From: SAR202 cluster bacterium
GTDB lineage: Bacteria > Chloroflexota > Dehalococcoidia > UBA6926 > VFHL01
Direction of reading: 5' to 3'
DNA: 64,000 nucleotides
Assembly: GCA_009392005.1 (NCBI GenBank)
Contig: VFHL01000001.1
Location: forward strand, 87,966-151,965
Position numbers and translations under genes: made by a program
Shown here: piece by piece, positions 58,175-63,138 of the stretch
Position numbering within the stretch: position 1 is the first letter of the stretch
Layout of the letters: each line of letters starts with the position of its first letter
The notes under the pieces: model-generated
What the model saw: the letters and a program-made list of their open reading frames with translations, nothing else
Database searches by the model: none
What the model was told of the DNA's origin: nothing

Positions 58175-58516
58175 ATGGGTGCAGAAGAAGTTCGAGCATA
58201 TGAGGAGAGCAGGGCTAAGTGGGAGCAGAATCACAGCCAGTTATTGCGACTGTCTGCGGAAATATCTCAGGTCGCGGAAAGTCTTAAAGATAATCCATTG
58301 CGTTTCATGGTTTCAAATGTTGAAGGAGTTTCGGGTTCGGGTTTACAACTTGCAAGTAACATTGTACTGGATGGGGATCGTTGGCCAACTGCAAAAGAAC
58401 TTTTGGAACTCACTAATGACTTTCGAGAGGTGACGTTTTCTATTCGAAACACTTGGGCTGTTCTTTCAGATGACGAAAAGGGCAAAGTTCAAACAGTAGA
58501 TGGCGCAATATTTTAG
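58175..58516 (+). CDS. hypothetical protein (113 aa, soluble, helical N-terminus)
   Basis: No recognised motifs. Sits immediately upstream of the MoxR gene. Confidence 0.35.
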   Translation: MGAEEVRAYEESRAKWEQNHSQLLRLSAEISQVAESLKDNPLRFMVSNVEGVSGSGLQLASNIVLDGDRWPTAKELLELTNDFREVTFSIRNTWAVLSDDEKGKVQTVDGAIF

Positions 58517-58644
58517 CAATGGCTAATTTACCTACTGGTATCTTTGGTGTTCGGTTAAATTAAGCGGGTGAATTGGGGTAAAGTTCTGCGATATAATTTA
58601 TCTATGAGGGGTCATTCTATTGCGCCAATCAAAGGGGAGGTAGC

Positions 58645-59619
58645 ATGGGTCCCGAAGAAGCGAAGCAACTAGCAGATAACATAATCGACAATGTATCAAC
58701 TGTCATAATAGGCAAGCGTCACGTTGTTCAGCACGCTCTCATATCGGCCGTGTGTGGTGGGCATATTCTGATTGATGATGTTCCTGGTGTTGGCAAGACG
58801 GTTCTTGCTAAAAGCCTTTCAATATCTTTTGGATGTTCATTTAAACGTGTGCAATTTACACCTGATTTGTTGCCGAGTGATGTATTAGGCGTCTCTATTT
58901 ATGACCAGGAGAGTCGTGACTTTACTTTTCGGCCTGGTCCAGTAATGTCCCAAGTATTGCTCGCAGATGAAGTGAATCGCGGGACCCCTAAAACACAGTC
59001 AGCGTTGTTGGAAGCGATGGAAGAAAATCAGATTACAGTAGATGGTGTTACTCATTTTCTTCCCAAGCCCTTTATAGTACTTGCGACGCAGAACCCTCTG
59101 GAACATGAAGGTACTTTTCCACTTCCTGAAGCTCAGCGAGATCGCTTCTTCATGCGTGTGCATTTGGGGTATCCCACGAAAGACGAAGAAAAAGAGATCA
59201 TGGAACAGCAACAAGAGGTGCATCCAATTGAAAGTTTGCAACCATTAACCACGCCTGACCAATTAATTTCTTTGCAGCAGACGGTCCGTGGCATATATGT
59301 TGATGATTTGGTGAAACAATATATTGTGGATATTGTTGACGCTACTCGCAAATTGGATGATGTTTATGTGGGTGTGTCACCGCGGGGTTCATTGGCGTTG
59401 TTTCGAGGTTCACAGGCACGCGCATTGCTGGATGGACGTGATTATGTGTCCCCTGATGATGTAAAAGGATTGGTGCAGCCAGTTTTGCAGCATCGGATTA
59501 TCTTGTCGTCGGCGACACGATTGCAAGATACTACTGCAGAATCTGTTCTTGGTCATGTTCTGGACTCGATTCCGGTACCTGGCACGTCTAGTCGTGGGTG
59601 GTTTCGAGCTGAATCGTGA
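58645..59619 (+). CDS. MoxR-family AAA+ ATPase
   Basis: 'VPGVGKT' Walker A, 'LLADEVNR' Walker B, 'VLATQNPLE...GTFPLPEAQRDRF' MoxR signature. Confidence 0.85.
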   Translation: MGPEEAKQLADNIIDNVSTVIIGKRHVVQHALISAVCGGHILIDDVPGVGKTVLAKSLSISFGCSFKRVQFTPDLLPSDVLGVSIYDQESRDFTFRPGPVMSQVLLADEVNRGTPKTQSALLEAMEENQITVDGVTHFLPKPFIVLATQNPLEHEGTFPLPEAQRDRFFMRVHLGYPTKDEEKEIMEQQQEVHPIESLQPLTTPDQLISLQQTVRGIYVDDLVKQYIVDIVDATRKLDDVYVGVSPRGSLALFRGSQARALLDGRDYVSPDDVKGLVQPVLQHRIILSSATRLQDTTAESVLGHVLDSIPVPGTSSRGWFRAES

Positions 59620-60827: not shown

Positions 60828-60852
60828 GCGTTATGTCTAAGCGAATTGATGC

Positions 60853-63138
60853 GTGGTTGGAATGCAAGAACAAAGACAACGATTAGCGGGTTTCTTTGTA
60901 AGAATCATTGATGATGGTCGTTCGGTGACTATTGTATTGACGATTTTAATGTCGATGACAGTGATTTTTTGTGTTGAACAAGCTGGTTGGATTAGCCCAA
61001 GCCCTTCGTTGATGCTCGTTGGTGCCCTCGGATTGGTATTGGGGTTTCGTTCAGCTCTTAATACAAAATGGCGACTTTTTTCGCATTTTACCGCGGTGCT
61101 TGTGGGTTTTCTGTATATTTTTTTCGTGACTGCTCTTTTGGTTGCAGAAGAGCAGTGGGCAGACCGGCTTAGTACGCTATCTGAGAGATTAATTGAATGG
61201 TTTTCAGTGATCAGTTTGGGTGGAGGAAGTACGGATACGATCCCGCTGATTTTCGGGCTTGCAATCGGAGTTTGGTTCGCAAGCTACATTACTGCATTTT
61301 TGACATTGTATAGGAAGTCAGTGTGGTCTTTACTTCCTATGGGAGTCCTCCTGTTTACCAATTTGACTTACCTTCCGGAAAAGTTTTCCCTTTATTTAGT
61401 ACTGTATTTATTGATCTCAGCACTTCTCCTTTCACATTTTTACTTTCAGAAACAAATTGATGTTTGGGGCCGTACTGGGGTCGCGCTGAAGGAAAATATT
61501 CAGCTTCATTTCTTACATTATGCTTTGTGGTTCTCTATTGGTTCTTTTTTGATTTCACTTATTATTCCTTCGTTGAGTATCGGTCCACCTGTGGTGCAAG
61601 ATACATGGAACAATGTTCGTTCGCCTGTCGGGGCGGTTGAAGATCATTTCAATCGCATCCTTGCGGCTGTTCCTGGGAAAAAAGATCATCCGATGTACCG
61701 TTTTGGTCCGGATGTGTCATTTCGGGGTGAAATCAGTCTTGGTGAGAATGTTGTGTATATCATTGATTCACCGATTGAATCTTATTGGCGTGGACGTACT
61801 TACGATGAGTACAACGGTTGGGGTTGGCAAAATGCGGATCGTGTAGAAAAACGTGTGGCAACACCGGGGCGAGACATTTTTCCAATAGCATCGAAACCTT
61901 CTCAAACCCGGGTTGATATCACGGTAATTCCACAAATCCCGACTAAAACATTAGTGTACGTAGGTGAACCAATTAGTTTGAGTGTTTCTTCCGAAGTGCT
62001 TGCGCAGCCAGCTGTCGCAGGGAATGCCCCTCCCGAGATTTTGAGTTTGCGAAGCCCCGAATTTTTGGGAATGCAGGATCTATATAGTTTCAATGCATTG
62101 GTTTCCATTGCTCGAAAGGGTGATCTTGAAGGGGTTCAAGGGGTTTTCCCTCGTTGGTTGAAGGAGCGCTATGTGCAACTTCCAGACGACTTTCCCGCAC
62201 GGGTACAGAATCTCGCTCGCGAGTTGACCCTACAGGAAAAGACTGTGTACGACAAAGTTCGTGCAGTCGAGTTTTACCTACGCGAAATTCCATATACTCA
62301 AGAGATTCAATCGCCACCTGTTGGATCTGATGGTGTCGAGTATTTTTTGTTTGAGGCGCGAAGAGGCTACAGTGATTATTACGCATCTGCAATGGTGATG
62401 ATGTTACGAAGTGTTGGTATTCCTGCTCGATTTGTGACCGGATACTTGCCGGGTGAATTTGATGCTGAAGAGCGACATTTCATAGTGCGGGAAAACGATG
62501 CCCATTCTTGGGCGGAGGTTTATTTTCCACCATATGGATGGATTGCGTTTGAACCGACTAATATTGTTCCGGTATCGTCTCTGGGCTCCCCGCGTTCGAT
62601 TGAGCAGAGGGATGTTGCTGTGGATCAAAACACATTTTCAACCGAAGGTTTGATGTTAGATATCGATGACGAAACAGCTCTTGGTGATGAAGCTCTAGAT
62701 GAAGAACTTTCTGACGTTCGACAGCCTGATATTGTTTCGGATCAACTGCCAATTTTCGCTTTAATTTTGATCGGATTCCTCCTAATCGGGTATGTGGGGC
62801 GAAGGTACTTGAGGAGTAGATTAGCGACCCAAAATGCGACCCAAAACTATAATTTGTTGATTCTCATCGCACGTTTTGGTCGAGTAGGTCCTGAATTTAA
62901 TGAAACCCTTGGAGAATACAAAGCACGTTTGCAAAGTGTTGCGCCTAAACATTCAATTATGATTGACAGTATTTTGGAGGGGTATGAAGCTGCTTTGTTT
63001 GGACGTTCCCCTATTGGTTCTTCACCAATTTCTATTCAATGGTTTGGTTTGACACGGTCATTTTTGGCTATTCCCATCTCTTCTATTTTGAGGCTAATTA
63101 CAGGGCGATCTTTACGGAGGCATGGTTTTGAATCCTGA
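60853..63138 (+). CDS. transglutaminase-like domain membrane protein (TgpA/DUF3488-type) with non-canonical catalytic residues
   Basis: Multi-TM N-terminus. TGase core '[28 protein letters not shown]...[20 protein letters not shown]': Ser and Glu occupy the usual Cys and Asp positions. Confidence 0.7.
   Translation: [761 protein letters not shown]

Follow-up and report, generated by a model that had tools for sequence, protein, structure and literature searches.

Serine at the cysteine nucleophile position of a TgpA-like transglutaminase-fold protein in a SAR202 bacterium and its Chloroflexota relatives

The window analysed here is a stretch of 64,000 nucleotides from a SAR202 cluster bacterium (Chloroflexota, Dehalococcoidia; assembly GCA_009392005.1, contig VFHL01000001.1, positions 87,966 to 151,965 of the forward strand). 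It contains a copy of the known three-gene envelope operon composed of moxR, a vWA-like DUF58 gene and a transglutaminase-like (TGL) gene, the last of which encodes a membrane protein related to the transglutaminase (TGase) TgpA of Pseudomonas aeruginosa. In this TgpA-like protein the nucleophile position, canonically a Cys, is occupied by Ser507, which together with His551 and Glu567 makes up a Ser-His-Glu triad. The Ser-type protein is not private to the SAR202 genome but represents the conserved state of a Dehalococcoidia-centred clade, and the triad has almost certainly been inherited and selectively maintained across this large, deeply diverged and Chloroflexota-restricted group.

Register and placement of the triad

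An alignment by eye in the first-pass annotation had placed a Ser at the nucleophile position, and this register held in all subsequent comparisons. A phmmer search against PDB sequences gave P. aeruginosa TgpA (6g49) as the best match (E 1.2e-22), with the 12-residue window segment that contains the Ser aligned on TgpA 'rsgFCahyagam' and a 21-residue segment, 'dahsWaEvy...afEPt', aligned on 'dahaWvEywqpeqgWlsvDPt'. The register was identical with the more distant 3isr, and a MAFFT alignment of 29 sequences again put S507, H551 and E567 at the Cys, His and Asp positions, within a region matched by Pfam Transglut_core far above its cutoff (Table 1). An AlphaFold2 (AF2) model of residues 240-600, with a predicted TM-score (pTM) of 0.79 and a core pLDDT >90, retrieved the periplasmic domain of TgpA (6g4h/6g49) as its top match in a Foldseek search of the PDB (E 2.5e-20, target-normalised TM-score 0.67). 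The register was kept here as well, and the model predicts a TgpA-type fold, i.e. a beta-sandwich plus a papain-like core. TgpA is hence the closest match of the window protein in both sequence and fold, with approximately 23% identity over the Foldseek structural alignment, and differs from it in reading Cys-His-Asp.

A wrong register, or a Cys elsewhere in the domain that has taken over the chemistry, deserves consideration because active sites are known to have migrated within the papain-like superfamily (PMC10318531). However, three independent alignments concur, and the sole Cys among the 761 residues is C40, located within the first transmembrane (TM) helix, which excludes an alternative thiol nucleophile in the window protein. 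The first-pass remark that no Cys is found near the motif was thus true and understated. As 52 of 57 Ser-type ectodomains are also devoid of Cys, we regard relocation to another Cys or mis-registration as very improbable; a relocated nucleophile other than Cys is conceivable.

An artefact confined to one genome, either a sequencing or assembly error in which TGT was read as AGT or a decaying pseudogene, would require only the single nucleotide that separates the Ser codon from a Cys codon. Still, the database protein P0001 ('transglutaminase domain-containing protein [SAR202 cluster bacterium]') is 100% identical to the window protein, and the same protein is present on nine contigs from several independent sources. 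The Ser is shared by orthologues at 82%, 75% and 43% identity as well as by dozens of more distant ones, the open reading frame (ORF) of 761 codons is intact, and the operon partners are conserved. The probability of an artefact is accordingly negligible. With Ser507 in place of the Cys nucleophile, the protein falls outside the class of cysteine transglutaminases and TGL cysteine peptidases. It displays instead the feature of Ser-for-Cys papain-like proteins, namely a conserved Ser with the His retained, and does so together with the other Ser-His-Glu proteins described below (55 representatives and 35 species loci).

Hydropathy and the positive-inside rule predict an N terminus on the inside, about seven TM helices, a domain of residues 240-625 on the outside, TM8 at 627-645 and an internal tail, so that the TGL domain is placed between the penultimate (TM7) and the last TM helix (TM8). 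The charge distribution and the near-total exclusion of Cys, which extends to 77 of 89 Cys-type ectodomains when the nucleophile itself is disregarded, argue for a TGase domain outside the membrane. A near-absence of Cys would be expected for exported proteins of monoderm bacteria, and in a monoderm-type Chloroflexota host the domain would be extracellular, as opposed to periplasmic in TgpA. This placement agrees with the periplasmic domain of P. aeruginosa TgpA (PMC3507681) and with the EsrD-dependent retention of a surface protein in Actinobacteria (bioRxiv 10.64898/2026.09.08.750141, preprint), whereas it conflicts with the cytoplasmic loop that Zhang and Aravind predicted for YebA-like TGL proteins (PMC3495828). 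MoxR is cytoplasmic, and so is DUF58 apart from its N-terminal TM hairpin. As the bulk of both partners thus resides on the opposite side of the membrane, the TGase domain is unlikely to serve directly as a scaffold for the MoxR ATPase, a function that had been suggested in the first-pass annotation; any contact with MoxR would involve the TM bundle or the basic C-terminal tail.

Triad states and operons of relatives

An exhaustive search with phmmer over 1.84 billion cluster representatives yielded 36,330 relatives, 2,476 of which scored at E <= 1e-30. About 190 cores were aligned, comprising the best 150 representatives at 50% identity and earlier hits. Cys-His-Glu was the most frequent triad in this set (91 cores) and Ser-His-Glu the second commonest (55 cores), which shows that orthologues are far from uniformly Cys-His-Asp, the latter being found in six cores only. 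In 14 cores all three positions were changed, with a Phe/Tyr nucleophile followed by Tyr/Phe/Trp and Asn/Ser; these Phe/Tyr-type forms make up a monophyletic clade of 14 representatives on a neighbour-joining (NJ) tree. Ser-His-Asp, Gly-His-Glu/Asp (GHE three times and GHD twice, in one-letter code) and Ala variants accounted for five cores each. Because Cys-His-Glu (CHE) outnumbers Cys-His-Asp (CHD), Glu has to be considered the norm of this branch of the family. The Glu reported in the first-pass annotation is therefore real but no anomaly, and only the exchange of Cys for Ser is a departure from the closest relatives.

The taxonomic distribution was followed in a GTDB set with one genome per species, from which the 80 best loci and three earlier ones were taken. 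Ser-His-Glu (SHE) occurred in 35 loci (35/80), CHE in 25 and CHD in 24; the Ser motif was part of one of the two patterns used for the search, which inflates the share of Ser in these numbers and leaves the taxonomic partition unaffected. All SHE loci belong to Chloroflexota, mostly Dehalococcoidia, and include a SAR202-II metagenome-assembled genome (MAG). CHE was found in Chloroflexia, Anaerolineae and Armatimonadota, and CHD in Actinomycetota, Nitrospirota, Acidobacteriota, Methylomirabilota and the archaeon Halopelagius. The Ser codons were AGC (30), AGT (4) and TCC (1), i.e. AGY in 34 of 35 loci, and the Cys codons TGC (43) and TGT (6). Judged by these codons, the main Ser clade is one T-to-A step (TGY to AGY) away from Cys; L057, with its TCC codon, probably acquired the Ser separately.

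Pairwise identity among the Ser-type representatives has a median of 32% and a minimum of 23%. All Ser proteins of the main clade that have a single domain keep both His and Glu, and the per-column entropy near the site is equal to or below that of the Cys clade. An acidic residue at nucleophile+1 (54/57), Phe at nucleophile+3 and Ser at His-1 co-vary with the Ser; since phylogeny is a confounder here, these residues were given no weight as evidence. In the NJ tree, a crude one that lacks bootstrap support and makes counts of Cys/Ser switches indicative only, the nucleophile site underwent 16 parsimony changes, with Cys and Ser swapping several times.

In most of 85 loci, the gene directly upstream of the TGL gene encodes DUF58. 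A moxR gene is found upstream or downstream in about half of them (downstream e.g. in L001, L006, L014, L023 and L082) and is otherwise absent from the flank; the arrangement is alike in Ser- and Cys-type loci. Linkage is not universal. No DUF58 or MoxR gene was present within flanks of ~4.5-6 kb in the Ser-type loci L043, L044, L049 and L061, which share the motif ESYSDYFASAM, and the same holds for the Cys-type loci L012, L013 and L030. Operons of the MoxR-DUF58-TGL type were also observed around TGL genes with FYN, FFN, GHE and AHN triads (Table 1). Next to the AHN operon, a divergent Bat-like operon is located on the minus strand (L088 7544-12529), encoding MoxR, DUF58/VWA, an unannotated gene, BatA-VWA and VWA-TPR. 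In an Anaerolineae MAG (L010 210-8607), moxR is followed by two tandem DUF58-TGL pairs, both with Cys-His-Glu. The haloarchaeon Halopelagius fulvigenes (L070 2975-7206) has the MoxR-DUF58-TGL order with Cys-His-Asp, consistent with the mobile, cross-domain spread noted by Zhang and Aravind (PMC3495828). Finally, four giant proteins of 2477-3142 residues (P0078, P0097, P0145 and P0163) carry three to four tandem transglutaminase cores. Their N-terminal cores are of the Ser/Gly type (SHD, GHD, SSD, SHE) and their C-terminal cores Cys-His-Glu/Asp, an arrangement that resembles tandem pairs of active and pseudo-domains.

Catalytic serine or binding pocket

Ser507 of the window protein is tentatively assigned a catalytic role, a reading that comes close to an even chance. 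It would act as an oxygen nucleophile that is activated by His551 and oriented by Glu567, and form an acyl-ester intermediate with a substrate that is an envelope protein or a peptide. Hydrolysis or acyl transfer would take the place of cross-linking through a thiol, in a version of the enzyme that is insensitive to oxidation and exposed outside the monoderm cell. The two partners, MoxR and the membrane-anchored DUF58, would engage the TM bundle or the C-terminal tail from within the cytoplasm, in line with the canonical system.

The persistence of Ser, His and Glu supports this assignment, as a neutral site would be saturated at a median identity of 32%, and the entropy values indicate that constraint around the site is not relaxed. 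In the lineages with a Phe/Tyr nucleophile, and in most of those with Ala, His has given way to Tyr/Phe/Leu and Glu to Asn/Ser, so neither residue is unconditionally fixed in the family. Furthermore, Cys and Ser have apparently been interchanged more than once, as suggested by the crude tree and by the two codon classes, AGY and, in L057, TCC. Some activity remains in Cys-to-Ser forms of bleomycin hydrolase and congopain, and possible activity has been proposed for papain-like families with a Ser (PMC10318531). Silicatein, a natural Ser homologue of cathepsin L, is described as a hydrolase, albeit by a disputed mechanism (PMC7565869, PMC6233156).

Several points weigh against catalysis. The most telling one is that the MoxR-DUF58-TGL system has a catalysis-independent role: relatives with dead triads (L084 and L085 with FYN, L086 with FFN, L087 with GHE, L088 with AHN) still reside in complete operons, so that the system can do without catalysis in some lineages. 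His and Glu/Asp are kept in Gly variants that branch within the Ser clade, which demonstrates that retention of these residues does not strictly need a nucleophile. The Ser could also be explained by a constraint of structure alone, given that Ser and Gly both cap helix N termini well. In the giant proteins, the Ser/Gly cores lie N-terminal to the Cys cores and one of them is without the His (SSD), which looks like the decay of a pseudo-domain. Papain and animal transglutaminases normally become inactive when their Cys is changed to Ser. Plasmodium SERA5, the only well-tested natural Ser papain-like protein found in the literature search, has a non-enzymatic role despite its retained active-site architecture (PMC4671257).

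The alternative to a catalytic Ser507 is a pocket that binds a peptide or envelope ligand without turnover on the outer face of the membrane protein, as a natural substrate trap would. The essential contribution of the protein to the MoxR-DUF58 system would then be structural or signalling, and Ser the most conservative, helix-capping replacement of Cys. This explanation, too, falls somewhat short of an even chance. Besides the operons with dead triads and the Gly variants, it gains from the lability of the nucleophile, which is restricted to the Ser-holding clade, where S, G, A, F and Y take part in the parsimony changes counted above; S, G, F and Y are each a single nucleotide step from a Cys codon. 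Independent Ser cases elsewhere in the family show decay of the His (P0027 with SFD, P0029 with SRD and core 1 of P0163 with SSD), and Ser/Gly-type cores occur in tandem with Cys-type cores in one polypeptide. Precedents are the pseudoprotease SERA5 (PMC4671257), inactive TGL domains predicted to bind peptides (PMC3495828) and menin, which is listed among the Ser-bearing papain-like families (PMC10318531). Conversely, His or Glu was lost in none of the ~55 Ser representatives and 35 species genomes despite an identity of only ~30%, Ser prevails over Gly and Ala by ~6:1 although Gly is one mutational step away, and the core displays neither rate acceleration nor a rise in entropy. If the Cys members within the Ser clade arose by reversion, a regain of Cys would have been selected only in a competent site.

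In summary, conservation argues for a selected pocket, and sequence alone does not settle the choice between an active Ser enzyme and a binding pseudoenzyme. Extending the catalytic reading from the window protein to the whole Dehalococcoidia/SAR202 clade is slightly more tentative and rated somewhat below even. The clade would in this case represent a natural family of Ser-His-Glu enzymes on the transglutaminase/papain fold, acting as oxidation-proof extracellular acyl-transferases or hydrolases, derived from a Cys-His-Glu ancestor by one nucleotide change and possibly interchanging with Cys more than once. If true, it would be the first prokaryotic serine enzyme on a TGase fold, with evolutionary controls built in, as Cys, Ser, Gly and dead Phe-Tyr-Asn sister lineages share the same operon context.

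The operon in the window and related systems

The locus comprises a MoxR AAA+ gene, an adjacent DUF58 gene and a gene for a multi-TM TGL protein, linked in relatives as well, which places it in the MoxR-DUF58/vWA-TGL system (Table 1). Pfam matches and gene order thereby bear out the arrangement recognised in the first-pass annotation, and both peptide strings quoted there are present in the translation. The reported gene contacts were likewise read directly from the sequence: the TGA stop of moxR and the GTG start of the DUF58 gene share four nucleotides (GTGA), and a spacer of 25 nt separates the latter from the TgpA-like gene when counted from GTG 60853, or 34 nt from ATG 60862, the start used in P0001. 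The start of the triad had been set too far upstream, at 58175. This position belongs to a separate ORF of 113 residues (58175-58516, plus strand), which was rejected as part of the system, as no match was found in Pfam, NCBIfam or PADLOC. Its homologues (81-92% identity) are confined to very close relatives, and it is regarded as a lineage-restricted hypothetical gene and an unrelated neighbour.

Table 1. Coordinates of the operon, the TgpA-like protein and its triad in the window, and of operons with altered triads in relatives
Feature	Location	Strand	Description
moxR	58645..59619	+	MoxR-family AAA+ ATPase, 324 aa; Pfam AAA_3 E 8.6e-62, AAA_lid_2 E 1.4e-21
DUF58 (vWA-like) gene	59616..60827	+	403 aa; PF01882 E 3.7e-21; N-terminal TM hairpin
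TgpA-like gene	60853..63138	+	Transglutaminase-fold membrane protein, 761 aa from GTG 60853, 758 aa from ATG 60862
N-terminal multi-TM region	60922..61566	+	Residues ~24-238, ~7 predicted helices; Kyte-Doolittle segments, loop charges
Transglut_core domain	62209..62556	+	Residues 453-568; E 6.2e-28; 97.7 bits, gathering cutoff 23
Ser507 codon (AGT)	62371..62373	+	Nucleophile (Cys) position; one nucleotide from TGT
His551 codon (CAT)	62503..62505	+	Catalytic His position
Glu567 codon (GAA)	62551..62553	+	Third triad position
Last TM helix	62731..62787	+	Residues 627-645, predicted; followed by basic cytoplasmic C-terminal tail 650-761 (RRYLRSR...)
ogt/MGMT gene	63122-63637	+	PCHRV active site; TIGR00589 E 3.4e-30
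FYN triad, MoxR-DUF58-TGL operon	L084 3381-8176		
FYN triad, MoxR-DUF58-TGL operon	L085 129-4658		
FFN triad, MoxR-DUF58-TGL operon	L086 567-4126		
GHE triad, MoxR-DUF58-TGL operon	L087 565-4274		
AHN triad, MoxR-DUF58-TGL operon	L088 2705-7529		

The translation of moxR has both the Walker A (GVGKT) and the Walker B motif (LLADEVNR) intact. In the DUF58 protein, the metal ion-dependent adhesion site (MIDAS) motif DxSxS is reduced to its first Asp (ILDMNRN). The same holds for essentially all TGL-linked DUF58 proteins of loci L001-L083, whatever the triad type, and no difference was found between the partners of Ser- and Cys-type proteins, the motif being degenerate in both. For the TgpA-like protein, the match of the N-terminal TM region to TgpA_N (PF11992) is weak (E 0.0092) and remains under the cutoff, unlike in TgpA. 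Homologues have a DUF4129 domain in the C-terminal tail, for which the window protein gave no match at E <= 0.01. No second copy of a TGL, MoxR or DUF58 gene exists within the window, and promoter and terminator scans gave background-level, uninformative results.

Two other MoxR-containing systems were considered and rejected. In the Bat/aerotolerance operon, MoxR and DUF58 are accompanied by BatA/BatB (vWA) and TPR proteins, whereas the genes 3' of DUF58 in the window are the TGL gene and ogt, with no BatA, vWA or TPR gene. An anti-phage MoxR-vWA ternary system is not indicated either, since PADLOC returned no matches for four proteins and bpMoxR stayed below its cutoff (26.3 bits, cutoff 27). 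The ogt gene shares 17 nt with the 3' end of the TGL gene; the junction of the two genes is also present, with an overlap of 11 nt, in the 75%-identical relative (L002/L003), and ogt may be co-transcribed. Upstream of the operon (54830-57916), the neighbours resemble ordinary housekeeping genes when their translations are judged by eye: a Rieske-type ferredoxin-like ORF on the plus strand and, on the minus strand, a FabF-like beta-ketoacyl-ACP synthase as well as a FolC-like folylpolyglutamate synthase.

The closest characterised counterpart is the P. aeruginosa operon PA2875-PA2874-tgpA (PA2873), which is co-transcribed in strain PAO1; tgpA is essential, and its periplasmic domain has transglutaminase activity in vitro (PMC3507681). 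The window locus has the same MoxR-DUF58-TGL order, and its third product shares the multi-TM architecture with the TGase domain ahead of the last TM helix. Zhang and Aravind described a strict association of a MoxR AAA+ ATPase, a vWA-type protein and an eight-TM YebA-like TGL protein, from which they predicted an ATP-dependent degradation machine built on a Cys peptidase with its TGL loop in the cytoplasm (PMC3495828). The three-gene association is kept in the relatives analysed here, including an archaeon; unlike in that prediction, the window domain is placed outside and the Cys is absent. Clusters of MoxR, vWA/DUF58 and TGL genes are also known from the bifidobacterial PFNA operon (PMC8430577) and the Esr clusters with EsrD. 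When esrD1 is deleted, the surface protein EsrA1 is released into the supernatant, in support of an anchoring function of the transglutaminase outside the cytoplasm (bioRxiv 10.64898/2026.09.08.750141). Kinases, FN3 or beta-propeller sensors and FHA proteins, which these clusters additionally contain, are not encoded at the window locus.

A Ser at the nucleophile position with other active-site residues kept is likewise found in SERA5, silicatein, menin and the families DUF2145, DUF2272 and DUF3750 (PMC10318531, PMC4671257, PMC7565869). These are different families, and none is a Transglut_core/TgpA-type membrane protein or linked to MoxR and DUF58. Ser-for-Cys replacement in the papain-like superfamily has been called 'rare' as well as "intriguing and poorly explored" in a survey that covers other families (PMC10318531). 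The literature search returned no description of Ser-type TgpA-like proteins, the original paper on the TGase-like superfamily (Makarova et al. 1999) being outside its reach.

For the biology of SAR202 the consequence is modest. The Ser-type clade does, however, provide a natural test of whether the transglutaminase/papain fold can work without a thiol, a question on which the natural Ser cases diverge, SERA5 being non-enzymatic and the mechanism of silicatein disputed. CHD, CHE, SHE, GHE and FYN forms of one orthologous membrane protein, encoded in the same MoxR-DUF58 operon, constitute a clean comparative series. The result moreover bears on a very widespread three-gene system that includes the essential tgpA of P. 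aeruginosa: if dead versions keep the operon, the core role of the TGL protein would not be, or not only be, transglutaminase chemistry.

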